From a phage, in the sequence record PZ534511.1: a stretch of 64,000 nt of DNA; one strand, written 5' to 3'. The notes below the pieces were generated by a model, which was not told the origin of the DNA, made no database searches, and was given only the letters and a program-made list of their open reading frames with translations. Every line of letters starts with the position of its first letter. Position 1 is the stretch's first letter. Of the stretch, positions 10,364-38,023 are shown piece by piece. A program made the position numbers and the translations under genes.

Positions 10364-10480
10364 ATGTCTACAGGTATTTATAAAATTTGCAAGTGTGGTT
10401 GTCGTTGCAACCTTCGTTGGTGCAAGGCACTGGACGATTTTATTTGGCATTGCCCTAAATGTGATGCGGAGTATCTATGA
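10364..10480 (+). CDS. 38-aa Cys-rich zinc-ribbon micro-protein (below ORF-track size cut-off)
   Basis: AGGAGG RBS 7 nt upstream; CKCGCRC...CPKC; stop overlaps nrdG start (ATGA). Confidence 0.45.
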   Translation: MSTGIYKICKCGCRCNLRWCKALDDFIWHCPKCDAEYL

Positions 10481-10950
10481 ACATTGCCGGATACACAGAA
10501 ATATCTTACACCGAAGGGCCAGGTATTAGAACTGCCTTGTGGGTATCTGGGTGCCCACACGCTTGCCCTGGTTGCTTTAATCAGGCATTTTGGTCAAAAG
10601 ATAAGGGGAGGAAGTTCACTGAAGAAGACTTGCAAAAAATCTTGTCAGATTTAGATAACCCGTCTGTGTGCGGTATCTCTCTACTGGGTGGAGAACCCTT
10701 AGCATACTATAATGAGCCAGATATTATTAGCCTGATGGAGAAAATTAAGGAAAAATTTGGTGACAAGAAAACTATTCTTGTATATACTGGGTTCACATTT
10801 GACCATATCTCTAGTGATGTTCTTAAACTGGCTGATATCATCATTGACGGTAAGTATGTAAAAGATTTACCAACCAAGAAACCGTTCCGAGGCAGTGATA
10901 ACCAAAGAATGTTTAAAAAAGTATCAGACGGTTGGGTTCAGGTAGACTAG
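10477..10950 (+). CDS. nrdG: anaerobic RNR activating protein (radical SAM)
   Basis: CPHACPGC radical-SAM cysteine motif; directly downstream of nrdD. Confidence 0.85.
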   Translation: MNIAGYTEISYTEGPGIRTALWVSGCPHACPGCFNQAFWSKDKGRKFTEEDLQKILSDLDNPSVCGISLLGGEPLAYYNEPDIISLMEKIKEKFGDKKTILVYTGFTFDHISSDVLKLADIIIDGKYVKDLPTKKPFRGSDNQRMFKKVSDGWVQVD

Positions 10951-10953
10951 TTG

Positions 10954-10983
10954 TTGACAAAGCTTTGTTGAGTTGGTTATAAT
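10954..10983 (+). promoter_or_regulatory. sigma70-like promoter (TTGACA-18-TATAAT)
   Basis: consensus -35 and -10 hexamers. Confidence 0.6.
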
Positions 10984-11012
10984 TGCCGTAATGAAAGCAG
11001 AGGAGGTGCCAA

Positions 11013-11126
11013 ATGGCTAAAAAAGCCTTGAAGAAGGCGTACAAGAAAGAGATTGCGCTTGAGCTTAAGAAAAAACACAAGCGTGAAAAGAAACATCATG
11101 AAGATGAAGAGGGGGTGCAACAGTGA
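11013..11126 (+). CDS. 37-aa lysine-rich micro-protein (below ORF-track cut-off)
   Basis: AGGAGGT RBS; MAKKALKKAYKK...; stop overlaps next GTG start. Confidence 0.4.
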   Translation: MAKKALKKAYKKEIALELKKKHKREKKHHEDEEGVQQ

Positions 11127-11473
11127 CACAAGAACGTATCGATTTGGCTAATAAGTTTGTAGATCTCATTTTGCCACGGTTAGTTACTCAACATGCAGAC
11201 GCTATTTCCACTAATCTTGATGGCTTACGCCTAATGCTGAATCGCACAGATGACCCTCGTATTCGGGCTGATTTAGAAGCCTCTGCCAACAAACTGGAAA
11301 AGTTTTTGCAAGTAGACACGCAAGAAGCCTTGCACAAGATTATGGTAGAGGGTCTCTCTAAAGAATTTACCATTAAAGAGCTTAAGGAGCTGATCCACCA
11401 AGAAGAGATGAATATCCGAGTTCAGGCTGTTGCAAGCAGTATGGAAGCGGCTATCGAAAAACTGTTGCAGTAA
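11123..11473 (+). CDS. hypothetical protein
   Basis: ORF, GTG start coupled to upstream micro-ORF. Confidence 0.45.
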   Translation: MTQERIDLANKFVDLILPRLVTQHADAISTNLDGLRLMLNRTDDPRIRADLEASANKLEKFLQVDTQEALHKIMVEGLSKEFTIKELKELIHQEEMNIRVQAVASSMEAAIEKLLQ

Positions 11474-11511
11474 AAGTTCCAGACACATCTCAATCTGAAA
11501 GGAGTCCCAAC

Positions 11512-12306
11512 ATGGGTCGAGCTAAAGAAACAAAACGCATGCGTGATGAAGCTAAAGAGGCTCGCAAATCTGATCGCCTGCGTAAAGCTGCTGAGAAATT
11601 TGCTGACGAAAGAGAGCACACCGCTCCAGCTCTCCGACCGATGAATAAAAAACAAGAGTATTATCTCCACCTTCTTAAAACTAAACAGTTAGTGATCGCA
11701 ACAGGGCTGTTTGGCACAGGCAAGTCGTTTATGGCTGCAGCTTATGCTGCAGACCTGCTTCGTAAGAACGAGATTGATAGAATTATTGTTTGCCGCCCAA
11801 ATGTTGAATGCGGAAGCCATGGCACGGGGTTCAAACCTGGAGGTGTACTACAGAAAAACGAACCTTTCTTAAAATCAATTTTAGAAACTCTCAAAAAACG
11901 ACTCGGACCTGGTGCTTATAGTACGTTATTGGGAGACGGTCAGACTGGGCGCATCGAGGTGCAAGAGGTTGCAACAATCCGAGGTCGAGATTTCTCTGAT
12001 CGTTGCATCCTCCTAGTTGATGAGTTTCAGTTGACAACCTGTGCAGAGGCTTTGGCAATTGCCACACGGCTTGGTGAGCATGCACAAATGATTTGCATGG
12101 GAGACTTACGACAGAACGATCTCAAAGGCACCTCAGGACTTCAGTGGCTGATCGACTTCGTGACGAGGCACGAAATCAACGGTGTTGGTATCGTAGATTT
12201 TGACGAGCCAGGAGATGTGGTTCGCTCAGGTATTGGTAGACTGTTTGCACTAGGCCTTATGACTGACCGTAATAAAGGTGTGTGGACCCCTGAGGCAGGT
12301 TTATAA
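11512..12306 (+). CDS. phoH: PhoH-like ATPase
   Basis: Walker A GLFGTGKS and PhoH-like IVCRPNVECG. Confidence 0.75.
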   Translation: MGRAKETKRMRDEAKEARKSDRLRKAAEKFADEREHTAPALRPMNKKQEYYLHLLKTKQLVIATGLFGTGKSFMAAAYAADLLRKNEIDRIIVCRPNVECGSHGTGFKPGGVLQKNEPFLKSILETLKKRLGPGAYSTLLGDGQTGRIEVQEVATIRGRDFSDRCILLVDEFQLTTCAEALAIATRLGEHAQMICMGDLRQNDLKGTSGLQWLIDFVTRHEINGVGIVDFDEPGDVVRSGIGRLFALGLMTDRNKGVWTPEAGL

Positions 12307-12347
12307 TATATAGGAGAGAGGGTGATATTATTCACCCTCTATTTAAG

Positions 12348-13277
12348 ATGCGTTTAGGAGAACAGTTACCACGAGAAGAAGTGTTTATCAAGAAAGCTAC
12401 TGATAAGCATGGTGACAAGTATAATTACTCCAAAGTTGTATACAAAAACAACACAACACCTGTGAATATAGTGTGCAACAAGTGTGGTACAGTTTTTAGT
12501 AAAACTCCTAAGTCTCACCTTATAGGCGCAGGATGCCCAGATTGTAAGAACAGGGAGTTAAGTGAGAGATTCCGAATGTCCAAGGAGGAGTTTGTAAAAA
12601 GGGCAACAGAACTGCACAAGGGAAAGTATGACTACTCTCTTGTAAAAAGTTTTTCTAACAGGAACGACACTGTTACTATTATTTGCCCCATCCACGGAGA
12701 GTTCAAGCAGACAGTTGCAAATCATTTAGCTGGTGGGTGCTACAAGTGTGGAAAAAGAGCGACAGCTAAAAAGATGAGGAAGTCTAAAGATAGATTCATA
12801 GAGGATGCTACTCAACTACACGGAGACATATATGACTATTCAGAAGTGGAGTATGTGAATACCCACACTCCTGTAACCATTATCTGCAAGTCTTGCGGGT
12901 GTAAGTTTCTTCAACAGCCTGCAAACCACCTGTGCGGTAACGGTTGCCCAGAATGCTCTACTTCAGGATTCAGGCAGAGTACTAAAGAGAGCTGTCTGTA
13001 CCTTCTTGTTGATAATCTTACCATTCCCACGGTTATAAAAGTTGGGGTGACTATCAATCTACAAAGCAGACTATACAACATAAGAAGGAACACAAATTTT
13101 CCTGTTCACGTGCTTAAAGTATTTACTTTCGAACAGGGGTGTGCTACCATGCAGCTTGAAAAATTGGTGCATAAAGTATTTGCAGATCGCAACTGCCACT
13201 TCGAAGGTTTCGACGGGGCAACGGAGTGGTTCTGGTACTCTCATGATATTGTAGAGTTTCTAGAAGACAATTGTTGA
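12348..13277 (+). CDS. protein with three tandem zinc-finger-like repeats and C-terminal T5orf172/GIY-YIG-like domain
   Basis: three ~45 aa repeats (K.GDKY.YS.V.Y...C..CG...H..G.GCP.C) then LYLL..IKVG.T...RL...R......EWF-type domain. Confidence 0.5.
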   Translation: MRLGEQLPREEVFIKKATDKHGDKYNYSKVVYKNNTTPVNIVCNKCGTVFSKTPKSHLIGAGCPDCKNRELSERFRMSKEEFVKRATELHKGKYDYSLVKSFSNRNDTVTIICPIHGEFKQTVANHLAGGCYKCGKRATAKKMRKSKDRFIEDATQLHGDIYDYSEVEYVNTHTPVTIICKSCGCKFLQQPANHLCGNGCPECSTSGFRQSTKESCLYLLVDNLTIPTVIKVGVTINLQSRLYNIRRNTNFPVHVLKVFTFEQGCATMQLEKLVHKVFADRNCHFEGFDGATEWFWYSHDIVEFLEDNC

Positions 13278-13302
13278 CAAACAGATAAGCTTTATGTATT
13301 AT
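13274..13302 (+). promoter_or_regulatory. sigma70-like promoter (TTGACA-17-TATTAT)
   Basis: -35/-10 hexamers; overlaps upstream stop codon. Confidence 0.5.
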
Positions 13303-13332
13303 TACCGGGCAAGACAAGGAGAAGGAGATAGT

Positions 13333-13644
13333 ATGGCTACAATACAAGAGAAACTGAATAAAATATACTGCCTGTTTGTCTATAACGGCGAGACAATTTT
13401 GGCAAATAAAGGATCCAAGAATGTGTGGACCAAGGACAGTGGTGGTAATATAATCAACTTAGCGTTGCTACGTGAGCGCCGACACAGATTCTTTATCGAG
13501 TCTCGAATTATTGAAAGCAGCACCTGCTACAGAACAGGCGATAAAGTAATTGTTGACAATGATACGTGGTATGTGGTAGACTGGCAATCATTGAGCTGTG
13601 ATGCTTCTGACAATCGTAAGTATTCCATAGTGATTGCTAAATAA
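13333..13644 (+). CDS. hypothetical protein
   Basis: ATG with AAGGAG RBS; the 13294 ATG lies inside the promoter. Confidence 0.45.
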   Translation: MATIQEKLNKIYCLFVYNGETILANKGSKNVWTKDSGGNIINLALLRERRHRFFIESRIIESSTCYRTGDKVIVDNDTWYVVDWQSLSCDASDNRKYSIVIAK

Positions 13645-13704
13645 AGGTAAATGTAAATCAGGTTTAAATAAATAGCTTTCAACTTCCAATATTAAGGATT
13701 TCTC

Positions 13705-14754
13705 ATGAATTTAACACCTCGCAGCACCATGGTACACGGCATGAAAGAAAAACAGAACAGTTTCGAACCTATGAGTAATAAAATGTTTGGTATGCCGGGT
13801 GGTATTATGGAAACATACAGCTACCCAACACCTGTTGTTGACCACGTTCTTTATATCGACGATTTGGAAGACCTGCAGGATCATATGTCTCGTCTGCAGA
13901 CGATCCGTATGGCTCAGCCGGAAGAAAGCATTCGGGTGATCATCAATAGCCCTGGGGGGTGCGTGCACATTGCAATGGCTTATCTACAGGCATTCCGCGA
14001 GTCTCAGGCAAGCGTTGTTGCACATGCTGAAGGGATGTGCTGCTCTGCGGGAACAATCTTATGGCTGGGTTGCAAAGAACGCACTGTGGCTCCGGACACA
14101 GAATTTATGTTCCACTACTATCAAGGTGGCACTTATGGTAACGGTGTGAACATGAATACTCAGGTCAGCTACTGGAAAAAACGTTTTGAACGCCTGATTG
14201 AAAAATACTACGGTGGAGTGCTGACAGAAGATGAGATCGCATCCATCACAGCTGGTGGCGAAGTGTGGTTGGACGGAGAAGAGCTGGCAGCACGTACTGG
14301 AGCTATTATTCTGGATGAAGGCAACATACAACGCATCCAGAACGGACAAAAACCTAAAAAGCTTCTGGCAAAAGGTGATGAAGAAGGCGTGTTAGGTGAA
14401 GCAGGTCTTCCGGAGATTCATCAGTGCACATCTTTAGATGAGTTAGTTCATGCTGTTGAATCTGCAAAAGCGGGTGGTTCGAAAGGTGATGTTCACACTG
14501 TGTTCCTGAATCTGCAGATGGAAAGTGGCGAGACCGTCCGAATTGCCCTGGGTGAGATTACTTCAGAAGATCTGCAGAGATTCTCTGTCGTTGAACTTCA
14601 GGATATTCTGTCTCAATTGAAGACTACTCTGAACGGCGGTGAAGAGGTTAAGGTGAAAGATAAGACTCGCAAGCGTCTTGTGGACAATATTATTAAAACA
14701 GCAAAAGAGCTCAATGAAAAAATCCTGGGTGCAGGAATTGTCGAAGAAGCTTAA
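13705..14754 (+). CDS. ClpP-like serine protease (S14 family) with acidic C-terminal extension
   Basis: IINSPGG, GMCCSAGTIL (Ser), FHYYQGG (His) in ClpP-like order. Confidence 0.65.
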   Translation: MNLTPRSTMVHGMKEKQNSFEPMSNKMFGMPGGIMETYSYPTPVVDHVLYIDDLEDLQDHMSRLQTIRMAQPEESIRVIINSPGGCVHIAMAYLQAFRESQASVVAHAEGMCCSAGTILWLGCKERTVAPDTEFMFHYYQGGTYGNGVNMNTQVSYWKKRFERLIEKYYGGVLTEDEIASITAGGEVWLDGEELAARTGAIILDEGNIQRIQNGQKPKKLLAKGDEEGVLGEAGLPEIHQCTSLDELVHAVESAKAGGSKGDVHTVFLNLQMESGETVRIALGEITSEDLQRFSVVELQDILSQLKTTLNGGEEVKVKDKTRKRLVDNIIKTAKELNEKILGAGIVEEA

Positions 14755-14765
14755 ACATTAATTCT

Positions 14766-14790
14766 AAAGCCCTCTTCGGAGGGCTTTTAT
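14766..14790 (+). terminator. rho-independent terminator
   Basis: AAGCCCTC-UUCG-GAGGGCUU hairpin followed by UUUAU. Confidence 0.7.
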
Positions 14791-14805
14791 GATCTGGAGA
14801 TTTGC

Positions 14806-15339
14806 ATGACTTGTGCTAGAAAACCTGATGAACAACGTAACGCCTACGATGAGTATGTGACACCGGAGTGGTGTGCAGAAGGGCTGTATGACCTCATTCC
14901 GTTCCCAGAAGATTGGGCCTATTTGGAGCCTTGCAGAAATAGCGCCTCAGGCGTGTTCTACTCCCGTATGCCGTTAGGATCTGCATGGGGAGAAATCCAA
15001 GAAGGTGTTGACTATCTGAATACAGAATACAACCATGTTGACTGTATTATCACCAACCCACCATACAGCCTGGCTCGTGAGTTTGTAGACAAGGCGTTGA
15101 AAGATGCTGACGTAGTTATTATGCTTTTGCGTCTTAATTTTCTGGAAAGCAAAGCCAGATTTGAATGGTGGCTTGATAATGCACCTACCACTGTGATCAC
15201 AATATCTAAGCGTCCGTCATTCCAATCCAACGGTAGAACGGATGGGCAGGCATATGCCTATTTTGTATGGGACAAGAAAAACCGTCTAGACTTGCCGCCA
15301 TTTATGTGGTTGGCACCACCAGAGGTAGACTTGAAATGA
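14806..15339 (+). CDS. phage Dam-like N6-adenine DNA methyltransferase
   Basis: DEYVTPEW N-terminal motif and ITNPPY catalytic motif. Confidence 0.7.
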   Translation: MTCARKPDEQRNAYDEYVTPEWCAEGLYDLIPFPEDWAYLEPCRNSASGVFYSRMPLGSAWGEIQEGVDYLNTEYNHVDCIITNPPYSLAREFVDKALKDADVVIMLLRLNFLESKARFEWWLDNAPTTVITISKRPSFQSNGRTDGQAYAYFVWDKKNRLDLPPFMWLAPPEVDLK

Positions 15340-15620
15340 AAATGAGTGCTAAGGACAAGTTGCACCAGTTGGCGCTAAAACGTCCTGTAACGCTCCCTGA
15401 CGAGCTTAACTCCATTTATGATGCGATTGTAGGGGAGATACAAAATAAAGCGTTAGCAGGCTTTCTGGGATGCGGATTTTCGATAAATCTACCCTCGCAT
15501 CTCTCAGATTACTTCCCGCATATTGTTGGGGATTTGAGGGCAGGAGGTCTGCAGGTAGATGTTGTTGGCATCTCTCCAGAGAAAAATAACACGGTTGCCT
15601 ACTTGACAGTAACTTGGTAG
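15336..15620 (+). CDS. hypothetical protein
   Basis: start set at ATG overlapping MTase stop. Confidence 0.4.
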   Translation: MKMSAKDKLHQLALKRPVTLPDELNSIYDAIVGEIQNKALAGFLGCGFSINLPSHLSDYFPHIVGDLRAGGLQVDVVGISPEKNNTVAYLTVTW

Positions 15621-15654
15621 TTGTGTATTGTTGTTATCAACAAGGGGGTCATTT

Positions 15655-15894
15655 ATGTACAAGTCATTTTCAATTTACTCAAGACAGGCGAAACACTACA
15701 CAGAGATTCTGATCACTCAGAAAAAATCTGTAGAAGGTGAGTGGGAATATCATCATAAAATGTTGCGTCCAGACTGGGTTTTTGATAGGCTTATTGCTAT
15801 GATCCCTCTTGGAGAAGTATACCCTCTGACAGGTCATAGGGATGCTTGGGATTTAATTGATTACATAGATTCATTTAAGGAGCCTAGTGTATGA
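15655..15894 (+). CDS. hypothetical protein
   Basis: ATG with AAGGGGG RBS. Confidence 0.4.
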   Translation: MYKSFSIYSRQAKHYTEILITQKKSVEGEWEYHHKMLRPDWVFDRLIAMIPLGEVYPLTGHRDAWDLIDYIDSFKEPSV

Positions 15895-16289
15895 AGATTG
15901 AGATCACTAAAGAAGGTAAGAAAGTGTCTGGCGATTATGCAACAGTAATTCGGGATGTAATGTTTGAAGTAACCCAGACTGGTACTTCTAAGGTTGGTCA
16001 AACGGTAAGTGTGCAAGGTAATATTGCCGCAGGTGAAAAGATAATCATCGTGATCAAAGGACAAGACCCTGTGGAAGGAACAGTGGGCCGAGGAGGCTAC
16101 CTGTGCATTTCTGAAGAACCGCGTATGCTGGTTGCTGATAACTTCACAGGTAAAAAGCGGGTATGTAACACGGACGAGGTGATGATTATCTATCCAGTCA
16201 ACCAAGATGATCCGGCAACATGGATTGTGGGAAATGAAATCTTCTCTTTAGAAGAGTTATCCTTCCCAGCTCCGCGCTCTGTTCAGTAA
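15891..16289 (+). CDS. hypothetical protein
   Basis: ORF with AAGGAG RBS. Confidence 0.45.
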   Translation: MKIEITKEGKKVSGDYATVIRDVMFEVTQTGTSKVGQTVSVQGNIAAGEKIIIVIKGQDPVEGTVGRGGYLCISEEPRMLVADNFTGKKRVCNTDEVMIIYPVNQDDPATWIVGNEIFSLEELSFPAPRSVQ

Positions 16290-16328
16290 TAATTTATCTT
16301 ACCAGGGACGGTAGAAGTAGGAGGTAGC

Positions 16329-16562
16329 ATGAAAGTTAAATTTCTTACAGATTTAGGATACCCTTCCTTGGTTGACTGCATCGGTAAAATTGTGGAAGCA
16401 AAACGGCTATCTGCAAACGATAATGTTGTCATGGTTAAGGGAAAAGATTTATTAGCTGCAGGTGCAGAGTCTGGCAGGATCTCTCCTGACTATACGTATT
16501 ACCTGTCTTTAAGCAATCTACCAGAACGAGGCGGCAAAGGCCTTGAAGTTGTGGAGGAGTGA
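16329..16562 (+). CDS. small protein, member of MKVK...VEIVEE paralog family
   Basis: MKVKFL...G.DLLAAGA...GLEVVEE resembles ORFs at 19993-24375. Confidence 0.5.
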   Translation: MKVKFLTDLGYPSLVDCIGKIVEAKRLSANDNVVMVKGKDLLAAGAESGRISPDYTYYLSLSNLPERGGKGLEVVEE

Positions 16563-16567
16563 CAGGT

Positions 16568-17092
16568 ATGCTTCTGATTAACTGGGAAGACCTCTATGGG
16601 GACAAAGACCCTGTTGCGTTTGTTGGTCGTAGGTGGAGGTACACTGAAGAACAACTGGCTGCAAAAAATTTAACTGCAAAACGCAGAAAGATTATCCAAT
16701 GCAAGTACAAATACGCACAGTTTGCTGCAAAAGTGTCTCCACAAATCGAGAGCTTTGTACTTAAATTGTATGACGAGTATCTCAAATTCAAATTGGATTT
16801 TGTGCAGGTATACCGTGCACAGGTACGTCCAGATACCAGCATTTGTAGATGGAAGGTTGTTTGTGACGGTAAAGATTTGCCACTCAGCTTGACAATTGAG
16901 CAGCGTTGGGGGTATCATGAGTGTGGTCTGTATGAGACTTGGGATGTCATTGTAGATCCTGCTAAGTACCTGAACACAGAGGAGCTGGAATATATCAATA
17001 AGGTTATTCTAGATATGTTTTTCAACTACACCCGTGAAAACTCCGAGAAAGAACGAGATAATTTTCTTGACACCATCAGCAACCATCTGTAG
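16568..17092 (+). CDS. hypothetical protein
   Basis: ORF; ATG with GGAGGAG RBS. Confidence 0.45.
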   Translation: MLLINWEDLYGDKDPVAFVGRRWRYTEEQLAAKNLTAKRRKIIQCKYKYAQFAAKVSPQIESFVLKLYDEYLKFKLDFVQVYRAQVRPDTSICRWKVVCDGKDLPLSLTIEQRWGYHECGLYETWDVIVDPAKYLNTEELEYINKVILDMFFNYTRENSEKERDNFLDTISNHL

Positions 17093-17122
17093 TATATAAT
17101 TTAACCTACAAAGGGAGGGCTA

Positions 17123-17359
17123 ATGAGTATAAATGTTGTGCTAATAGGTTACCTGGTAATAGCCGCTATAACAGCGGTATTCTTGACAGGTGTATGCATC
17201 GTGTCCAGACGAAGGGTGAAGTTTGATGATTTTATCACCATCATCACTGCTGCACCTTTTTGGCCTGTTGTTATCTTCATCGTGATAATGTGCCTGGTTG
17301 ATTACTACAAGAATATCCGTAAGGAGAAAAAGGAGGGTAGGGATGGAGACCGCACCTAA
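17123..17359 (+). CDS. small membrane protein (2 predicted TM)
   Basis: two hydrophobic stretches. Confidence 0.45.
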   Translation: MSINVVLIGYLVIAAITAVFLTGVCIVSRRRVKFDDFITIITAAPFWPVVIFIVIMCLVDYYKNIRKEKKEGRDGDRT

Positions 17360-17578
17360 AACTGTTTATACTGTTCTTAAAGAGATTGCGTTCTACGCAG
17401 ATCTTAGCCAGGCACCTTTATGGGAAAAGAGCATGTATTTAAAATGGTGCGTTAATTTAGGGAGACCTTCCAGTGTTTCAAGCCATGTTTATTGAGATGC
17501 TATCTGGGGTATTGTTACTGGTAGCCATCTTAGGTGGTGCAGTTCTGATGTATAACTATCTTGAAAAAGGAGACAGCA

Positions 17579-17764
17579 ATGGCAAAAAATAAATCTTTAG
17601 AGCAGGCTGAAAACCTTCTCCACGAGCTAGTAAAGGAGTGGAAAGTTGAATACTCAGATTTTAATGCACGAGAGGGTGAAGATTATTGGCCTACGGAGCG
17701 CTCAGAGGGCGAATGGTATCAAGATTTTATAGAGTGGTTATATCAGACGTGCGATGAGGGGTGA
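17579..17764 (+). CDS. hypothetical protein
   Basis: ATG with GGAG RBS inside track ORF 17561-17764. Confidence 0.35.
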   Translation: MAKNKSLEQAENLLHELVKEWKVEYSDFNAREGEDYWPTERSEGEWYQDFIEWLYQTCDEG

Positions 17765-18231
17765 CGATGTTTGTTAAATATGTAAAAACGTGCCTCAACA
17801 GTCTTGGCAGAGAGCATTGGTACACTTTGCTTGAAAAAGGGGAAATTTTAACAAAATCTGGAAAGATAACTTTGATACCTCTTGATAGTAAAGGTAAAGA
17901 CCCGTCACGACTTGTTATAGATGATTACGTTACAGGTGTGACGTTCGAGGTCTCTGTGGAGAGGTTAATACGCAGAGCTGGCGGCCCTTATGACCGAAGA
18001 GAGTATGTTTTCGATTCCGTTACAGAGATGGGGGAGCATCCGTCTTTAATGTTCAGGATGGTAATCAGAGATATGAGGTCATCTATAGATAGGATCGTAA
18101 AGGACATTAAGGAACCTTTTAGAGTAAAAGTTAAGAAGTTTTTCGATTCTAAGATTAACATACTTGCCGTTGCACTAGGTGTAGTTCAACTTCTGTTAAT
18201 TTTGCACTATTTTGAACTACTATTTAAGTAG
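17761..18231 (+). CDS. hypothetical protein with C-terminal TM helix
   Basis: ORF; hydrophobic C-terminus. Confidence 0.45.
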   Translation: MTMFVKYVKTCLNSLGREHWYTLLEKGEILTKSGKITLIPLDSKGKDPSRLVIDDYVTGVTFEVSVERLIRRAGGPYDRREYVFDSVTEMGEHPSLMFRMVIRDMRSSIDRIVKDIKEPFRVKVKKFFDSKINILAVALGVVQLLLILHYFELLFK

Positions 18232-18293
18232 TAGTTGAGATATGGCACAAAGGATGTGCCATAGTGAAATAAACTAAGAAAGAGGTAGAGAGA

Positions 18294-19322: not shown

Positions 19323-19412
19323 ATGATTGCATCAATATTAACGTTTATGGGTGGCGTGGCATTCGGATTCATTGTTTGCCTGTTTATAGTGATTATGTCT
19401 ATGCGAGGCTGA
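19323..19412 (+). CDS. 29-aa hydrophobic micro-protein (below ORF-track cut-off)
   Basis: single TM-like stretch filling gap between genes. Confidence 0.3.
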   Translation: MIASILTFMGGVAFGFIVCLFIVIMSMRG

Positions 19413-21586: not shown

Positions 21587-21688
21587 ATGGGCGTGATTAA
21601 GAAATTAGTCCCAAGTGTAGAGATTGCATGCTTTGAAATTATGTTTGCAATCGCAGTTGTAGTTAATGTGTTAGGTTACGGCTATTGA
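21587..21688 (+). CDS. 33-aa hydrophobic micro-protein (below ORF-track cut-off)
   Basis: GAGGTG RBS; single TM-like stretch. Confidence 0.3.
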   Translation: MGVIKKLVPSVEIACFEIMFAIAVVVNVLGYGY

Positions 21689-26183: not shown

Positions 26184-26210
26184 AGGACGCTCTGTGGCGT
26201 CCTTTTCTTT
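26184..26210 (+). terminator. rho-independent terminator
   Basis: AGGACGC-ucugu-GGCGUCCU hairpin followed by UUUCUUU. Confidence 0.65.
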
Positions 26211-26372: not shown

Positions 26373-26401
26373 TTGACACATTACCGATCCAGTGATAGTA
26401 T
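26373..26401 (+). promoter_or_regulatory. sigma70-like promoter (TTGACA-17-TAGTAT)
   Basis: -35/-10 hexamers. Confidence 0.5.
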
Positions 26402-26421: not shown

Positions 26422-26523
26422 ATGGAGTACACAATGAGAACATTGTCCGAAGTTTTAGTGGTGATCCTGATGATCATTACGTCCATAGCGGCTGTTGCCG
26501 GAATACTCACGGGTGGAACATGA
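26422..26523 (+). CDS. 33-aa hydrophobic micro-protein (below ORF-track cut-off)
   Basis: single TM-like stretch; stop overlaps next ATG. Confidence 0.3.
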   Translation: MEYTMRTLSEVLVVILMIITSIAAVAGILTGGT

Positions 26524-29936: not shown

Positions 29937-30081
29937 GGTGTTTTTTACCTCTCAGTTAATTTTCTTACAACTTCCCTTCAAAAAAGAATATAGCAAAACT
30001 GCCGATCCCTGTCAACCAAGGATAGCATAATTTTTATGTGATCAAGGGGCTTTATTGCCCCTGACCATGTAACTTGTTGTA

Positions 30082-30347
30082 TTATTTGTTGCTCATCCAG
30101 TTTTCCCAAGCTGCCTGATAATCTGCCTCACTACGGCGGATCTCTTCTTGCTCTTCAAGCCGGATCTCTTCTTCCAGGTACCCCAGGATATCGGATTTTT
30201 TGGTCTGGCGTAGCATCCAGTCATCTTTTTTGCGAGTAAAGATCTTATAAGCTTTCTCGCAAACCTCTTTTTTGCTACCTTTTTGGACTTCAAGAATTCT
30301 GTAGGCCATGTACTGAACTAATTTAAGCTGATCCAGACGTTTCATGA
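30082..30347 (-). CDS. hypothetical protein
   Basis: ATG preceded by AAAGAGGAAAACATC cassette. Confidence 0.45.
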
Positions 30348-30423
30348 TGTTTTCCTCTTTATGTGGTTCGTTTTGATTAGTTGATAATACAGCAGTTCGC
30401 AGATCAGTTTTTAGCAATTCATG

Positions 30424-30642
30424 CTATTTACTCACAAGGGTGTCGAAAACAAATTTTTCTTTATTGTCTAAACTCACGTATCCGATTCGACCACGCAAGC
30501 CGCAAGTAGTGCCGTACTCGTAACCATTAAGGCCTTTAACCTTCCAATCCGTACCCATTAAAACCGCATTATATTCCTGACCAACTACAAAAGCGCCCCC
30601 AGTCGATTCAATGCAAACAACTTTAATTTTACGGGTTGTCAT
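30424..30642 (-). CDS. hypothetical protein
   Basis: ORF with GGGAGAAAG RBS and upstream hairpin. Confidence 0.45.
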   Translation of the reverse strand: MTTRKIKVVCIESTGGAFVVGQEYNAVLMGTDWKVKGLNGYEYGTTCGLRGRIGYVSLDNKEKFVFDTLVSK

Positions 30643-30702
30643 TTTCTTTCTCCCTTTGTGTGGTTCTGATTAGTGGGCCTTTTGGCCCGTGTCATTATCT
30701 TA

Positions 30703-30978
30703 TTACTTACGGCGGCAGAATTCAAGCGTTTTTAATTGATAATCTTCCTCAGCCTGGAGTACAACCGCCTCGATCATTTCGTTGGCATTGTTGAAGCCAT
30801 ATCCTTTAGCGAATTCATCCGCACCACCTTCGTGATCATGTTCTGCGTTCATCGCTTCCACGAAATGGAATTCAAGATTATTGAGATAAGGGCTTGATGT
30901 TCCGTCCTCTTTTTCGATGAGATCCCAAATAGCATTAAAACGTGATTCAACTTCTTGGTTAATCCAGCTTAACATGGC
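30703..30978 (-). CDS. hypothetical protein
   Basis: ATG with GGAAGAGAGG RBS. Confidence 0.45.
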   Translation of the reverse strand, partial: AMLSWINQEVESRFNAIWDLIEKEDGTSSPYLNNLEFHFVEAMNAEHDHEGGADEFAKGYGFNNANEMIEAVVLQAEEDYQLKTLEFCRRK

Positions 30979-31187
30979 GTTTTCCTCTCTTCCGGTTGTT
31001 GTGTGGGCGCTTTTGCCCCCTTCGAGATAAATGCTACCCCACCACCTGGCAGATGTCAACGGTTTTTATAGTTTTTATATAGCAGGCACACCCGGTGATT
31101 GTCTCCCCCTGTCGCCAGGTGCCTGCCGTGAAACAAGTATAACAAAAAACAGGACCATTGCAAGCCCTGTTTTGTAGTTTATAAATA

Positions 31188-31379
31188 TTATATTTTTTCG
31201 CCTATGTAGTCCGGTCGGTTTTTCTCTGTCATGCGCTTTAGCAATTCTTGCATGTTGCTTATGGCTTGCAGTGTATCCCCTTCCAGACTTGAATCAACAT
31301 AATCAGGATCGTCTATAACCTTTCTATGATTATGATAACGCAGTACCGCCAATACCTTTCTAACTTGTTCGATATTCAT
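31188..31379 (-). CDS. hypothetical protein
   Basis: ORF. Confidence 0.4.
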   Translation of the reverse strand: MNIEQVRKVLAVLRYHNHRKVIDDPDYVDSSLEGDTLQAISNMQELLKRMTEKNRPDYIGEKI

Positions 31380-31391
31380 TTTTACCGCTCT

Positions 31392-31526
31392 TTAAAACAA
31401 GGTGCCAACCGTTTCCAATAGATCACTGACTACCAGGACAATACCGATCAGCACATACCTAACCATAAGGGGAAAGAGCGCCAATATTGCCACCACAATC
31501 CCCAAGGTGATGATTATCTTTCTCAT
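31392..31526 (-). CDS. 44-aa hydrophobic micro-protein (below ORF-track cut-off)
   Basis: MRKIIITLGIVVAILALFPL... TM-like. Confidence 0.3.
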   Translation of the reverse strand: MRKIIITLGIVVAILALFPLMVRYVLIGIVLVVSDLLETVGTLF

Positions 31527-31528
31527 GG

Positions 31529-31813
31529 TTAACGGTTTACGTAAGCTTTACCGTTTACGGTGATGGGCAGATCTTCCAGGTCTGGATCTTCCTTAAGGTC
31601 GCGAGCAAGCTCACCGCACCGGACACCCTCGAATCCGTAGTACTCTGTTGTGCCGTCCTTAAAAGTTTTAGTGGCAAGGCATAAGCGATAAGTAACCCCG
31701 ATTCGATTGACGGCATGAATATCCGTTAGATTAACCTCTTTTGCCAGCTCTTTGGCCATTACAGGCGCATTAAGTCCAACAACTAGGGCAACCACTGCGA
31801 TCATCTTTTTCAT
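31529..31813 (-). CDS. putative secreted protein (signal peptide)
   Basis: MKKMIAVVALVVGLNAPVMA signal-peptide-like N-terminus. Confidence 0.5.
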   Translation of the reverse strand: MKKMIAVVALVVGLNAPVMAKELAKEVNLTDIHAVNRIGVTYRLCLATKTFKDGTTEYYGFEGVRCGELARDLKEDPDLEDLPITVNGKAYVNR

Positions 31814-31904
31814 TGTGTCTATCCTCTTTCTGCTACGTTTAAGGCGGCGGTAACCGCCTGTTTATGCTTTGTTGGTTAATTTTCGGGTATCGGTATAAAT
31901 TAAA

Positions 31905-32120
31905 CTATGCTGTACGCTCAACTATAACAACGGTTTGGGGGATCTCACCTTCCACCACTAATAAGGCCTTTTTCTGCGTGATGGATATCTTTACCCGTTG
32001 CAGCGTGGCGGTGAAGTCTTTCATTTCGTCACGTGGTGTTTTAGTGCAATACCAGATCTCAGGCTTGCCGATCTGTAAGTTGCGTAAAAATTCTGTTTTG
32101 CCTGTTTTGTTAGTGATCAT
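31905..32120 (-). CDS. hypothetical protein
   Basis: ORF. Confidence 0.4.
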   Translation of the reverse strand: MITNKTGKTEFLRNLQIGKPEIWYCTKTPRDEMKDFTATLQRVKISITQKKALLVVEGEIPQTVVIVERTA

Positions 32121-32129
32121 TTGCCAACC

Positions 32130-32234
32130 TCACCCGATACCGTTGGAAGACAAGATCATATTAGACATGGTTGCAATCAGGCCAATACCCAGGGCAATAG
32201 CTAGGATCACCGCATCAATTAATTTCTGTTTCAT
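32130..32234 (-). CDS. 34-aa hydrophobic micro-protein (below ORF-track cut-off)
   Basis: MKQKLIDAVILAIALGIGLIA... TM-like. Confidence 0.3.
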   Translation of the reverse strand: MKQKLIDAVILAIALGIGLIATMSNMILSSNGIG

Positions 32235-32324
32235 CTTGTTTTCCTCTTCTTGTTCCAGGTGGCGGACCATTCCACCGCCTTATGTATTATGCTTTGTAAG
32301 ATGGTTGTTTGTTTTCAAACTATT

Positions 32325-32504
32325 TTAACGATAATCATCGTACGCTTTATTAACCTGGCGAATATAACATTCAAAAGCCAGATCAATAGATTTATATTCA
32401 CGGATATACTCACCATAGGAAACCACATACATTTCTATAGCTTCCTCATATGCGAGGAGAATAGAATCCAAGCCTACGATCTCAGTCTTTGCAATAATAG
32501 CCAT
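32325..32504 (-). CDS. 59-aa hypothetical protein (below ORF-track cut-off)
   Basis: ATG preceded by promoter-hairpin-RBS cassette. Confidence 0.35.
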   Translation of the reverse strand: MAIIAKTEIVGLDSILLAYEEAIEMYVVSYGEYIREYKSIDLAFECYIRQVNKAYDDYR

Positions 32505-32551
32505 GATTTTTATCCTCTTTGTGGTTGGTGGGGCTTGCCCCTTTGATTTAT

Positions 32552-32579
32552 ATACTACAGTCTTATATGGTCATGTCAA
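32552..32579 (-). promoter_or_regulatory. sigma70-like promoter (minus strand TTGACA-16-TAGTAT)
   Basis: hexamers read on minus strand, followed by GC hairpin and RBS. Confidence 0.5.
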
Positions 32580-32689
32580 CTATTTTCAAAAAATTTTTCT
32601 GCTGTGATATTTTTCCCGGTAGGGTTCGCTACTTTCAAAATTCTATCATGCACCGGACGCCCAAAAGAATAAGCGCCGTACACAGTAAA

Positions 32690-32809
32690 CTAATAATCGC
32701 CGTCAGGTTGTACTATTACCGCCGCATAGGGTACGCCTTTTTCGTTATTGCTGACAAAATAGATCACGTTGCCATTAATAGCCTCGGTGCGTTTAATTTG
32801 TTCCATCAT
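32690..32809 (-). CDS. hypothetical small protein
   Basis: ATG with AAAGAGAGG RBS. Confidence 0.35.
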   Translation of the reverse strand: MMEQIKRTEAINGNVIYFVSNNEKGVPYAAVIVQPDGDY

Positions 32810-32864
32810 GATGATTTGCCTCTCTTTATTTTCATAATTGGGGGCCTTTTCGGCCCCGCCAGGT

Positions 32865-33149
32865 TTATTTGTTGATAGCATGCAGCGGGAAAGGTACGCC
32901 AGGTTGATAGATAACTTTTACAACCTCATCAGGACAAAAGAAGTTGCAGAACTCACCGCAATAGGCCTCATCCTCTTTTAGCTCTTCATCGACATACTCA
33001 AAAAAGTAGTCGATGCTTGGATAATCCTGACCGGGATTATAGTCAACCATTGTCAGGACTAGTTCAAGATCGTTGCGTAGGATATGCATACCCGCTTTTA
33101 AGTATTTTGCTTCCATTTCTACTACATCGCCAACGGTAACAATAGCCAT
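32865..33149 (-). CDS. hypothetical protein
   Basis: ORF with GGAG RBS. Confidence 0.45.
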   Translation of the reverse strand: MAIVTVGDVVEMEAKYLKAGMHILRNDLELVLTMVDYNPGQDYPSIDYFFEYVDEELKEDEAYCGEFCNFFCPDEVVKVIYQPGVPFPLHAINK

Positions 33150-33374
33150 GGTTTTAACTCCTATCTATCCGGTTAATGATTGGGGGCCGCCCCCCTGACA
33201 CGTCCTATTATCCATATTGTAGGGCTTGATGCAAGTACTTCTTTAAAAATTTTTTAAGCGCCTTGGGGGCCGCTGTAGCGCCAAAATAATAAAGGCCATG
33301 CAACCGCATAGCCTTTATGTGATTATATCGCTGCAGGCCCTGCCATGGGCCTTATTTTGCATCATTTGCTGGAA

Positions 33375-33674
33375 TTATTCAGAGAAAACATCGTTCACAA
33401 TAGCGATCACAATGCCGCCCACCTTGTCACGGTCAACAATGCACAAATCACCATAGATCATGTGGTAGTCTGGATGATCTTTCACGGAATAGTCAATGAG
33501 TGTCTTCTTATCGTCCAGCTTTTTGACTTCCATGGTCATTGTAATGAATTGATCGTTAAATGCACTATTGCGGAAGATCATTACCTGGCCGCCTTGACAT
33601 CCAGTGATCTCAACTTCCACGCCGTCTACGATCTGACCATCAAAGAAATAAAGATTATTGGCGGGTATAAACAT
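33375..33674 (-). CDS. hypothetical protein
   Basis: ATG with AGGAG RBS. Confidence 0.45.
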   Translation of the reverse strand: MFIPANNLYFFDGQIVDGVEVEITGCQGGQVMIFRNSAFNDQFITMTMEVKKLDDKKTLIDYSVKDHPDYHMIYGDLCIVDRDKVGGIVIAIVNDVFSE

Positions 33675-33718
33675 GATCATTGCTCCTTTTTGCACTGATT
33701 ATTTTAACAGGGTTTAAA

Positions 33719-33763
33719 TTTACTTTATTGATGGTCCTGGAGTCAAGACCATCTAAAAATAAA
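33719..33763. repeat. 45-bp palindromic element, copy 1 of 3
   Basis: TTTACTTTATTGATGGTCCTGGAGTCAAGACCATCTAAAAATAAA. Confidence 0.7.
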
Positions 33764-33765
33764 TT

Positions 33766-33966
33766 TTACAGGCCTACAATCTCTTTGATTCGTTTAACTG
33801 CTGCCTCAGCGCCTTGGGGGTAGAAATTATGATAACCAATCACGCGGGTAATACTGATCGCCACCTGATGATCTTCATAATACCCCTTGAATATTTCTTG
33901 ACCATCAACCAGCACAGCAATTTTTTCTTCTTTTTTGAAGTTAATAACGCGGATATTGTTGCTCAT
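33766..33966 (-). CDS. hypothetical protein
   Basis: ATG with AAAGGAGAAAC RBS. Confidence 0.4.
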   Translation of the reverse strand: MSNNIRVINFKKEEKIAVLVDGQEIFKGYYEDHQVAISITRVIGYHNFYPQGAEAAVKRIKEIVGL

Positions 33967-34110
33967 TTTGTTTCTCCTTTTGGAACTTTGTCTATGTGGT
34001 GGGGGAGTGTCTCCCCGTTGATTGTTATTATCCATATTCTGGACCGGATTGCAACACCCCGGAAGAAAAATTTTTTGAAAAGTTAGGCCCCCAGGGATCG
34101 GGGGCCGTTA

Positions 34111-34230
34111 TCAGGTGCGTACAGCGATAAAATACATCCCTACGCCTAACAATATTTCAAGGGCGATGATCTCCAGCCATACCATAACACGGCGCGCCTT
34201 ATCGGTGCGGGGCTTATCCTTGGGTGTCAT
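34111..34230 (-). CDS. 39-aa hydrophobic micro-protein (below ORF-track cut-off)
   Basis: AGGAGGAAAGGGGGG RBS; TM-like C-terminus. Confidence 0.35.
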   Translation of the reverse strand: MTPKDKPRTDKARRVMVWLEIIALEILLGVGMYFIAVRT

Positions 34231-34250
34231 CGTCTCCCCCTTTCCTCCTG

Positions 34251-34472
34251 TTAGTAGTGACGTGGTTTGCAATGGCCCCCAGGAGTATTATCACCACGCA
34301 CATTACAAGAAAAATTATCTCTGTCGTTGTTCGATCCATTGTTATAAAATTCCTTAAGATCAGGCCTGAAAATAAAGCTTTCATTATTGAATCCATCCCG
34401 CCAGGCGGCTGGCCTCAAATCTTCACTAAATGGATTAATTAACGTGGTATTATTTAAACGGCTGGCCCACAT
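34251..34472 (-). CDS. hypothetical protein (frame ambiguous with overlapping 34214-34339 TM peptide ORF)
   Basis: two overlapping ORFs in different frames; cannot decide by eye. Confidence 0.25.
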   Translation of the reverse strand: MWASRLNNTTLINPFSEDLRPAAWRDGFNNESFIFRPDLKEFYNNGSNNDRDNFSCNVRGDNTPGGHCKPRHY

Positions 34473-34821
34473 ATTTTCTATTCCTCTCAAATAAGCGATC
34501 CGCCTCAGTTAAACAAATCTCATGGGCGTGATCTCTGGTTTTAGCTTCATCGAAAACCTGTTGTGCAAGGCTGCAACGTAGGGAGACTGGAAGATCACTA
34601 TAATAGGCGTTGACAAACGTTTGAGCGTCGTACAGGTCTGAAAATACTTTACCCTTTCTATTATTCCCCTTGTCAACAATTGCAAGGATAACCAATACAA
34701 TAGTTGCAACCACCCCCAGGAAAATAGATATAATAAACCATAAAAAGGCGGATCTTCCCATCTTGCCAGCGATCCAGGCGTTAAACAAGGCAACCAATAC
34801 AGCCAAAATAATAAATTCCAT
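34450..34821 (-). CDS. membrane protein
   Basis: two hydrophobic helices; ATG with AAGAGG RBS. Confidence 0.45.
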   Translation of the reverse strand: MEFIILAVLVALFNAWIAGKMGRSAFLWFIISIFLGVVATIVLVILAIVDKGNNRKGKVFSDLYDAQTFVNAYYSDLPVSLRCSLAQQVFDEAKTRDHAHEICLTEADRLFERNRKYVGQPFK

Positions 34822-34885
34822 TCTATGTACCTCTTTTACAGTTCTGATTAACAATAAGGCGGCAAATATGCCGCCTGTTACCTGA

Positions 34886-35266
34886 TTAAAAATTATCGCC
34901 GTAAATCTTTCCGCTTTCTACCCATACCACCACGCGAGGCATACTATCCCACACGTCTTGTTTTAGATTGAGCGCGTGCAATTCTTCGGTGGTGCTCATA
35001 CCGGGCACGGGCTGATTGTATACTGCAAAACGACCACCCGCATAATCATAGGCTAGAGTTAAATCACACTGGATCATCTTTTTGATCATGGCATTAAGCA
35101 TGGCGTTAGCCGCATACTGATCACGTTTTAAAGGCAACTCTTTGATTAGTTTGCGATAGTTTTCGATATGGTCGCACACTGTTTCACGCGGAAGATCTTT
35201 CATATCCTCGCGAAAGGTAACCAGGTTAAACATAACGGTGTCAATAGCTTTAGTAGTGTTTTTCAT
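34886..35266 (-). CDS. hypothetical protein
   Basis: ATG preceded by promoter-hairpin-RBS cassette. Confidence 0.45.
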   Translation of the reverse strand: MKNTTKAIDTVMFNLVTFREDMKDLPRETVCDHIENYRKLIKELPLKRDQYAANAMLNAMIKKMIQCDLTLAYDYAGGRFAVYNQPVPGMSTTEELHALNLKQDVWDSMPRVVVWVESGKIYGDNF

Positions 35267-35320
35267 GATGTTTTCCTCTTTGTTTTGTGTGGGGGCAAAC
35301 GTCTTGCCCCCTTGAGTTTT

Positions 35321-35348
35321 AATATAGCAGGTTTTTAGGTTATTGCAA
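35321..35348 (-). promoter_or_regulatory. sigma70-like promoter (minus strand TTGCAA-16-TATATT)
   Basis: hexamers on minus strand followed by GGGGGCAAG...TTGCCCCC hairpin. Confidence 0.5.
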
Positions 35349-35356
35349 CACTTTAT

Positions 35357-35980
35357 TTATGAAAAAGTCATCTCGCCATCTTCATCCACATCAAACCGCC
35401 AATCATTGGCCTCGATAAGGCCGATCAGGTTTTCGGTAGTGAATTGTTCAAGATAGGCCCCCTCCAGGTCTACGTAAACCTTGCGGGATAGCTCCCGTAC
35501 CGTCTCGGTGATCAGCTCTTCCAGGTCTTCCACTTTGTTTTCTTGTTTGGCGGTCAGATCTAGCCAGGTGGTATCAATGTATCCGCTTACAGTGTTTTCA
35601 TGGCTGTAATGGCTGTACTTGTCGCGTTCAACACTGGCTGATAACTCGCCATCGTGCATTGTGCCGAACAAGTGACGAATTGATCGGAACTTGGTCAGGG
35701 CCTTTACTTTACGCAAAAATTTTTCTAAATCCACGTTTTCAGCACTGATTGAAGCGCCGTCACCCTGGCACCAAAAGCCGGACCAATGTACTTCGGTATC
35801 TTCAAGGCCGTACTCTGGAAAGATATATTCTTTGTAGTGTTCAATTACACTTTCTGCAAAAAAGTCATCCCCGCTGTGTTCTTCTCTTTCGCGTACCATT
35901 TCAATGGCTTTTTCTTTTTGTTCGTCGGTCAGCACGTCGAAAGATAAATTGTAACCTGTGGTAATGTTAACGGTGGTCAT
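35357..35980 (-). CDS. hypothetical acidic protein
   Basis: 207-aa ORF; no confidently recognised motif. Confidence 0.5.
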   Translation of the reverse strand: MTTVNITTGYNLSFDVLTDEQKEKAIEMVREREEHSGDDFFAESVIEHYKEYIFPEYGLEDTEVHWSGFWCQGDGASISAENVDLEKFLRKVKALTKFRSIRHLFGTMHDGELSASVERDKYSHYSHENTVSGYIDTTWLDLTAKQENKVEDLEELITETVRELSRKVYVDLEGAYLEQFTTENLIGLIEANDWRFDVDEDGEMTFS

Positions 35981-36037
35981 GATATTTTCTCCTGTTTTCT
36001 TTGTTAGTGGCGGGAAGTTTTCCCGTTTACGTGTTTA

Positions 36038-36065
36038 AGTATACTTATCAAGATTTACTTGTCAA
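36038..36065 (-). promoter_or_regulatory. sigma70-like promoter (minus strand TTGACA-16-TATACT)
   Basis: hexamers on minus strand followed by CGGGAAAACUUCCCG hairpin and RBS. Confidence 0.55.
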
Positions 36066-36315
36066 CACTATTTTTTAAATTATTGTGGCGCAAAATGTTT
36101 AAAATCTCCTCAACGTCATCAACACGGCGGCAATTTTTAAACGCTACCAATTGCCCCATGATTTTAATCACTGGGCGGCCTTGCCAGTGCCCCTGGAGAA
36201 AGCGCGCCTTGACTTTATCGGTGGAACTATCACGCCACCAAATAGCCTTGTTGTTGCAGTAGTAAAAATTATTCAGGACAACATCAACTTTATCAAAATT
36301 TTTTAATTTACGCAT
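36055..36315 (-). CDS. hypothetical protein
   Basis: ORF with AAAGGAG RBS. Confidence 0.4.
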   Translation of the reverse strand: MRKLKNFDKVDVVLNNFYYCNNKAIWWRDSSTDKVKARFLQGHWQGRPVIKIMGQLVAFKNCRRVDDVEEILNILRHNNLKNSVDK

Positions 36316-36496
36316 GGCGTTTACTCCTTTCTCTCTTTGATGTGGTTAGTATAGCTAACCTGTTGACGATGTCAATGATATTTTTAACGCCATAAAACGG
36401 CCTTGGGCGATGTTTTCAGGTTAAAGGGGGCGATTGCATAGGTGGGGGCCTTTTTGGCGCTTACAGGGCCAACCAGGGGCGCTATTCGTAGGATAG

Positions 36497-36525
36497 AAAT
36501 AAAAAGCCCCGCACAATGGCGGGGC
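36497..36525 (-). terminator. rho-independent terminator (minus strand)
   Basis: GCCCCGC-cauugu-GCGGGGC hairpin followed by UUUUUAUUU on minus strand. Confidence 0.55.
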
Positions 36526-36533
36526 GTTGGTTG

Positions 36534-36734
36534 TTATTTGTCTTTATGGCGGTATCGTTCTGCCTGTCGTTCACGTTCCAAAAGTAGGCCGGGCAATTTA
36601 CGATCATAATGATTACGCCAGATCTTCCCAAACCTTTTTGGCTTATTCAGTTTATTGTTACGCTGGCGGCGTTCTGGCAGCTCTTCGGAATCATGAGGGC
36701 GCTTTACAATTTTCTCGAAATTAATTTTCATATA
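36534..36734 (-). CDS. small highly basic protein
   Basis: Arg/Lys-rich; ATG with AAGGGGGG RBS. Confidence 0.4.
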   Translation of the reverse strand, partial: YMKINFEKIVKRPHDSEELPERRQRNNKLNKPKRFGKIWRNHYDRKLPGLLLERERQAERYRHKDK

Positions 36735-37077
36735 TTCCCCCCTTGCTAACTTCAATATTGGCCTGAATAGCCCGGATACGGCGCTTTATAACTTCCTGAT
36801 CTGTGTGATCGTATCCCCAAAAGTCTACAATTTTTGCGCCCCCAGCCTTTAGGCGGTATAGTGTTTCCTGCATTTTGTAAGCCGGGATCGGTCGCGGTGT
36901 TACCTGGTCGCCCTTCTCATTCTTGTACTTGATAATGTAGTCTTCATTGTCGTTGAATACCCAAAATGGGTATTCTGTGAGCGCGTTGCTCTCTTTTTCG
37001 TTTTTAGATTGGATCTTGTTTACAATTAAAGCCGTAGCAATAGCGCCAATAATAAAACTTGCCCCGCTGATCATGTA
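36721..37077 (-). CDS. membrane-anchored protein
   Basis: N-terminal TM helix; AAAGGAGA RBS. Confidence 0.45.
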   Translation of the reverse strand, partial: YMISGASFIIGAIATALIVNKIQSKNEKESNALTEYPFWVFNDNEDYIIKYKNEKGDQVTPRPIPAYKMQETLYRLKAGGAKIVDFWGYDHTDQEVIKRRIRAIQANIEVSKGGIYEN

Positions 37078-37149
37078 CTTTCTCCTTTCATTGTGTTGAT
37101 AAACTGTCTTTATAGATGGCCCTGCTACCAGGACCACCGAAAAAACAGC

Positions 37150-37395
37150 TTATTTGACGATACCGACAAAACAGATCCCGCCTTCCCCTATATAGGCAAT
37201 ATCGGTAATTTTATAATTTGTCAAGATCCGCGTGTTCAGATCATTAATAAAATCGGTCATCGCGTTGGTGTAGTTGTCTTCCGTGTCTAAGGCATAATCC
37301 CAGGTGTAAACCTTTTTACGTCCGAAGCCTTTTACCATGATACGGGCGCTTTTGGTGTTGGTGGGCGCATAATATTTTGTGATTAGTGCTGCCAT
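37150..37395 (-). CDS. hypothetical protein
   Basis: ORF with GAGGAG RBS. Confidence 0.45.
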   Translation of the reverse strand: MAALITKYYAPTNTKSARIMVKGFGRKKVYTWDYALDTEDNYTNAMTDFINDLNTRILTNYKITDIAYIGEGGICFVGIVK

Positions 37396-37435
37396 GGTTT
37401 TAACTCCTCATTAGTTCAGTGTTAACAGTGTAAAG

Positions 37436-37480
37436 TTTACTTTATTGATGGCCCTGGAGTCAAGGCCATCTAAAAATAAA
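37436..37480. repeat. 45-bp palindromic element, copy 2 of 3
   Basis: TTTACTTTATTGATGGCCCTGGAGTCAAGGCCATCTAAAAATAAA. Confidence 0.7.
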
Positions 37481-37482
37481 TT

Positions 37483-37824
37483 TTACTCGTTTTCTTCCAG
37501 CTCTGAAAGCTCTTCTTTCATTTCTTCCAGCTCTGTCTGCAATTCCTGGTATTCTTCATCGTCCTCAATATCCAGGCTGTCGATGTAGTCGCTAAATCCG
37601 CAGCGGTAAGCGATAGGATCTAACTCCTTGAGGATACGCGACGGAAGAAAAGAAATGTTTCCGATCATAATTTCGCCGTAGATCTCGTCTAACCATTCAT
37701 CATAGTTTTCGTCGTACTTGTCCTCGTCGATTTCAAAGTTATCGATCTTATTCTCAAGGTCTGCGATCTGTTTTTTCAGTTCAGCGATCTGCATAGCTTT
37801 TTCTGCGGCGGTCATAGTAGTCAT
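37483..37824 (-). CDS. acidic coiled-coil protein
   Basis: Glu/Asp-rich heptad-like sequence. Confidence 0.45.
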   Translation of the reverse strand: MTTMTAAEKAMQIAELKKQIADLENKIDNFEIDEDKYDENYDEWLDEIYGEIMIGNISFLPSRILKELDPIAYRCGFSDYIDSLDIEDDEEYQELQTELEEMKEELSELEENE

Positions 37825-37875
37825 GGTGTTTTTCTCCTTTTGTGTATTCTGGGAAGTTTTCCCGTTTATGTGCTT

Positions 37876-37903
37876 ATTATATCGATTTAAGTTAGCTTGT
37901 CAA
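37876..37903 (-). promoter_or_regulatory. sigma70-like promoter (minus strand TTGACA-16-TATAAT)
   Basis: consensus hexamers followed by GGGAAAACUUCCC hairpin and AAAAGGAG RBS. Confidence 0.6.
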
Positions 37904-38023
37904 TTAAAAGTTTAAGAAAAATTTTGCGACACCGTTGGCGCTACCCATCAACATTTGCGCCAGGATGTACCCAATGATGCAAACGATAATAGTTACCTTT
38001 GTGTGCTGGCGTGTAGTACTCAT
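37904..38023 (-). CDS. 39-aa hydrophobic micro-protein (below ORF-track cut-off)
   Basis: GAAAGGGGGG RBS; TM-like. Confidence 0.35.
   Translation of the reverse strand: MSTTRQHTKVTIIVCIIGYILAQMLMGSANGVAKFFLNF

Follow-up and report, generated by a model that had tools for sequence, protein, structure and literature searches.

Conserved Short Open Reading Frames in the Small-Gene Region of an rV5-like Escherichia coli Phage

Characterized small membrane proteins of phages include Imm and Sp of T4. A further one is Gp11 of the Staphylococcus phage PhiNM1, which is small and early and acts as a block to cell division (PMC11237401). For rV5, the genome paper describes "88 mainly small ORFs" in the region corresponding to the one analyzed here, and lists 15 proteins with transmembrane domains (PMC3606486). 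The window, that is, the whole stretch of 64,000 nucleotides analyzed here (PZ534511.1), comes from a Vequintavirus, an rV5-like E. coli myophage, and many GenBank genomes are ∼95% identical to it.

The rV5 Small-Gene Region and Its Counterpart in the Window

A preliminary description of this DNA had pointed to ten micro-ORFs lying between longer genes, and all ten are present as ATG-initiated ORFs with matching coordinates and lengths, although this in itself is not significant because similar-sized antisense ORFs are common. They fall among the sigma70-promoter-driven small accessory genes known from rV5 (PMC3606486). They were "unlisted", however, only with respect to the ORF track used at the first stage: nine have full-length matches to PHROG families (the exception being 19323–19412), and orthologues carry annotation in rV5, SophiaRose, A51.2, ECP32, HMD-6, WM and EPFV3. 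As nearly all are thus already hypothetical proteins in related genomes, the finding is largely an ordinary one.

Referring to each ORF by its leftmost coordinate, seven are orthologous in position, length and sequence to rV5 (NC_011041) proteins: 11013 to gp113 (phrog_7670, E = 2e-20), 21587 to gp140 (phrog_15151, E = 4e-25), 31392 to gp165 (phrog_16005, E = 4e-28), 32130 to gp168 (phrog_14631, E = 4e-22), 32325 to gp169 (phrog_9374), 34111 to gp176 (phrog_13629, E = 1e-30) and 37904 to gp188 (phrog_16391, E = 2e-31). Over this region the DNA of these genomes is ∼94–95% identical, and there is no substantial difference from the rV5 proteins, with the window carrying the 34-aa form of gp168. 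The 19323 ORF is without annotation in rV5, where other frames are annotated over two more of the ORFs (gp109 over 10364 and gp157 over 26434). No peptide matched a characterized family with a named function in Pfam, NCBIfam or PHROGs, and neither ribosome profiling nor proteomics of small proteins from any Vequintavirus turned up in our literature search.

The ten ORFs are real, and most of them evolve as genuine small protein genes. The best explanation, to which we assign a probability of roughly 0.78, is that they are ordinary small protein-coding genes of an rV5-like Vequintavirus. They would then sit among small accessory genes grouped in two blocks that are transcribed divergently, expressed in short operons from host-type sigma70 promoters, and be translated either from their own Shine-Dalgarno (SD) sites or by stop-start coupling with a neighbor. 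Seven hydrophobic peptides would most likely insert into the E. coli inner membrane with the N-terminus inside, where their targets for binding and modulation would be membrane proteins of the host or of the phage; the soluble trio would comprise a zinc-ribbon-like peptide that is usually coupled to nrdG (10364), a Lys-rich peptide (11013) and a putative β4-α protein (32325). That the ORFs are translated, that their products enter the membrane and that they play any part in infection is inferred here.

Selection and Translation Signals

We scored ORF integrity across 10–18 homologous genomes, depending on the ORF (counts out of 19 comprise the window and 18 homologues), and counted dN/dS on a minimum-spanning-tree approximation, with no codon model. 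Purifying selection, the absence of which had been named in the preliminary description, together with a lack of ribosome footprints, as grounds for rejecting these genes, is evident in the pooled data, where frame 0 has a dN/dS of 0.25 (p = 4e-37, up to 18 related genomes) and the two other sense frames have values of 0.92 and 1.64. The antisense frame sharing the wobble positions is also low (pooled dN/dS 0.34), so that SD sites, promoters and the orientation of the genes are what decides the strand. Among the controls, adjoining accepted genes gave 0.03–0.31 and non-coding stretches 0.54–1.0, and two spurious micro-ORFs of the same region gave w = 1.6 (33208, intact in 7/18 genomes) and w = 0.97 (31075). 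The expected synonymous bias also holds individually (p ≤ 0.014) for 10364, 11013, 19323, 26434, 32325, 34111 and 37904, which are therefore under protein-level purifying selection, but not for 21587, 31392 and 32130, which are open in relatives with dN/dS values that do not separate from the non-coding controls.

Good ribosome binding sites had been claimed for the whole set, and a recognizable SD does lie 6–10 nt upstream in 8 of 10 cases, among them AGGAGG at 10364 and GAGGAGG at 11013. The exceptions are 31392, which lacks an SD and has its ATG 2 nt past the upstream stop (TAAccATG), and the ATG at 26422. The tight coupling noted earlier was confirmed in the form of ATGA overlaps (10364 with nrdG, 26434 with the downstream ORF), a GTGA overlap (11013 with the next ORF) and, for 19323, spacers of 2 nt to the preceding stop and 3 nt to the following start. 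Several of the micro-ORFs are framed by consensus promoters and terminator-like hairpins.

Hydrophobic Single-Helix Peptides

Seven of the ten ORFs (19323, 21587, 26434, 31392, 32130, 34111 and 37904) encode hydrophobic single-helix peptides of 29–44 aa, with best 17-residue Kyte-Doolittle windows of 2.38–2.93, whereas a value of 2.0 is reached by only 8.8% of 215 random ATG-initiated ORFs of 29–60 aa from the window. Most of the seven have a basic N-terminus, and several keep their hydrophobicity beyond neutral simulation. The earlier view of the set as mostly single-helix membrane peptides thus agrees with the hydropathy of these seven but not with 10364, 11013 and 32325, which are soluble; 32325 had even been placed among the mostly hydrophobic minus-strand ORFs, and is acidic. 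By analogy only, these peptides may be likened to PhiNM1 Gp11 and to T4 Imm and Sp as short, single-helix, early or accessory phage products. Proteins of this kind stand for the functions put forward in the preliminary description, where host takeover or superinfection exclusion was suggested as a candidate role, although we detected no sequence relationship to characterized small phage membrane proteins.

Two minus-strand members belong to the individually supported ORFs. The ORF at 34111..34230 (−; 39 aa, basic N-terminus) has a strong SD, is intact in 18/18 genomes (dN/dS 0.17, p = 5e-8) and is the last cistron ahead of a GC-rich hairpin (34106–34086, minus strand) that begins 5 nt past its stop; we found it in 119 phage records, all of Vequintavirus type. 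The ORF at 37904..38023 (−; 39 aa, SD GGGGGG), found in 113 phage records, is intact in 17/17 genomes (dN/dS 0.23, p = 6e-5), and its stop abuts a 12/12 sigma70 promoter match (37903–37876, minus strand).

The 29-aa peptide at 19323..19412 (+) has only a weak PHROG match and lies in a present/absent cassette of ∼96 nt with a 10-nt direct repeat, GCGAGGCTGA, on both flanks, which is cleanly missing from SophiaRose, HMD-6 and one further relative. Where present, the ORF is intact (13/13; dN/dS 0.28, p = 0.014), and it occurs in 91 phage records, being annotated, among 40 listed, only in three genomes of the BASEL collection.

The ORF originally placed at 26422–26523 should start instead at the in-frame ATG at 26434, giving a 29-aa peptide (26434..26523, +), because GGAG lies 6 nt upstream of that codon, the 29-aa profile phrog_34195 spans residues 5–33 of the longer ORF, and the annotated counterpart in EPFV3 (ORF108) is 90 nt long. 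A terminator-like hairpin (26184–26203) and a promoter-like site (26373–26401) precede it. Selection acts on this frame (dN/dS 0.30, p = 5e-4), which over 26431–26520 has the lowest dN/dS, 0.18 compared to 0.42 for the frame annotated as rV5 gp157 and SophiaRose_162; 2/18 genomes carry frameshifting indels near the 3′ end.

The three remaining hydrophobic ORFs call for more caution. That at 21587..21688 (+; 33 aa), between a RaiA-like gene and the next gene, is probably coding, has a GAGG SD, and is open in 18/19 genomes, its start being shifted to codon 3 in one. The very hydrophobic 44-aa ORF at 31392..31526 (−) is a probable gene with a weak selection signal: it is open at 135 nt in 16/16 genomes despite 88 substitutions on the tree (probability of staying open under neutrality 0.02), its eight database homologues are all 44 aa, and its matches to Pfam DUF7396 are full-length and below threshold. 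The 34-aa peptide at 32130..32234 (−; SD AGAGGA) is intact in 11/11 genomes, and since the sequence upstream of its ATG differs between genomes, the 46-aa extension is not conserved. We regard it as a lesser but appreciable possibility that at least one of these three is untranslated, and stays open through recent shared ancestry or some other constraint on DNA or RNA. Their dN/dS values (0.57 and 0.71, neither significant, for 21587 and 31392, and 0.40, p = 0.084, for 32130) would fit this when set against the 0.54–1.0 of non-coding sequence, as would the lack of an SD at 31392, where the three codon positions are equally variable with no third-position excess. At 21587 the constraint could lie on a structured intercistronic RNA: a 69-nt core is nearly invariant, third positions included (on the tree it has ∼0.06 substitutions per site, compared with ∼0.66 in non-coding sequence and 0.28–0.42 in neighboring genes), and the 142-nt spacer folds better than its shuffles (z = −2.84), yet this fold shows neither informative or compensatory covariation nor an Rfam match. 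Moreover, all three ORFs keep frame and length despite 13–88 substitutions, together with their hydrophobic helix and full-length PHROG matches, while many genomes carry broken versions of the truly spurious micro-ORFs nearby; the good SD sites at 21587 and 32130 also argue for translation.

The nrdD–nrdG Locus and the Soluble Members

Between nrdD (8177..10300, +) and the gene for the NrdG activase (10477..10950, +; rV5 gp112 orthologue, dN/dS 0.08) lies the ORF at 10364..10480 (+), correctly described before as encoding a Cys-rich peptide of 38 aa. It has seven Cys and one His, enough for two putative metal sites, and all eight residues are invariant; it matches phrog_20137 (E = 2e-31) and is intact in 19/19 genomes (dN/dS 0.14, p = 3e-14), with a neutral probability of 0.0065 that all haplotypes stay open. 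The peptide resembles small CPxCG proteins (PDB 8q5b; ZifS, PDB 8yoz) of 36–54 aa with a CPxC and a second Cys knuckle, although the match is not significant (profile E = 0.19, Foldseek E > 1). An AF2 model of low confidence (pLDDT 64.7) predicts a three-stranded ribbon that superposes on Zn ribbons to ∼1.1–1.3 Å over 28–31 residues, the best Foldseek matches, none significant, being ribbons of the Rpb9/TFIIS type.

The earlier suggestion that this peptide serves the anaerobic ribonucleotide reductase (RNR) is consistent with its location, and could mean that the class III RNR system of the phage has an accessory subunit dedicated to it, which might handle metal or electrons for the NrdG activase or for the glycyl-radical domain of NrdD, or help in their assembly. 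The ORF lies between nrdD and nrdG in 19/19 genomes, with an ATGA overlap with nrdG in the window, ECP32, EPFV3, WM, SophiaRose, L016 and L017. Two divergent lineages thus have the peptide directly ahead of nrdG, since NrdG of L016 and L017 is only 51–54% identical to that of the window; in that comparison the peptide and NrdG have equal pS (0.72 and 0.73), but pN is 0.05 for the peptide and 0.36 for NrdG, so that the peptide is by far the more constrained of the two. We nevertheless consider such a dedicated role unlikely. Vectrevirus ACG-C91, a T7-like phage, has a 36-aa homologue (pN 0.06) between nucleotide kinase and DNA ligase genes, overlapping the ligase start, and the 7.1 kb examined there contain neither nrdD nor nrdG, which leaves a dedicated RNR role unproven; in rV5, A51.2 and HMD-6 the peptide ORF and nrdG have two other ORFs between them, and a more distant phage nrdD–nrdG locus has no such ORF. 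When 1.84 billion representative proteins were searched with a profile, no homologues came up outside these close clusters, so that class III RNR systems do not in general include the peptide, and our literature search yielded no report of a factor of this kind.

Some records name the peptide "anaerobic NTP reductase protein" or "ribonucleotide reductase", and homing endonuclease genes (GIY-YIG, T5orf172, DUF723) lie immediately upstream in several genomes, as might be expected of a broken-off piece of NrdD or the remnant of an endonuclease inserting at this site. This origin is effectively refuted by a full-length NrdD with its own CLKCG...CPECG zinc site and RRVSGYL glycyl-radical motif, and by BLASTP against NrdD, NrdG and the neighboring endonucleases, which gave matches of CPxC length only; the peptide is also present with or without an adjacent endonuclease. 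It is quite improbable, too, that 10364, 11013 and 26434 are mainly upstream coupling ORFs that feed ribosomes to nrdG, a 116-aa ORF and a 70-aa ORF, respectively, with the peptides themselves unimportant. In favor of this, the four-nucleotide start/stop overlaps exist, the final codons of the zinc peptide ORF contain the nrdG SD, and 11013 and 26434 each come first behind a promoter-like site. Against it, purifying selection at the amino acid level is strong in all three (dN/dS 0.14, 0.07 and 0.30, respectively), the zinc peptide shows no variation at any Cys, and this peptide is kept in the three phages where it does not adjoin nrdG.

The other soluble ORFs are again best read as small protein-coding genes. 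That at 32325..32504 (−) encodes an acidic 59-aa protein with a predicted β4-α fold that is AP2-like and possibly DNA-binding, an assignment that is only a lead, since PH, WGR and other small β-plus-helix domains score similarly; sequence identity to AP2 and integrase arm-type DNA-binding domains is 6–16%, and a Foldseek search of the fold gave nothing significant. The 37-aa soluble peptide at 11013..11126 (+) is Lys-rich, as described before, with 13 K/R among its 37 residues. It is the first cistron after a 12/12 sigma70 promoter match (10954–10983) equivalent to P118 of rV5, and is intact in 19/19 genomes, with the selection on it highly significant (p = 2.5e-8).

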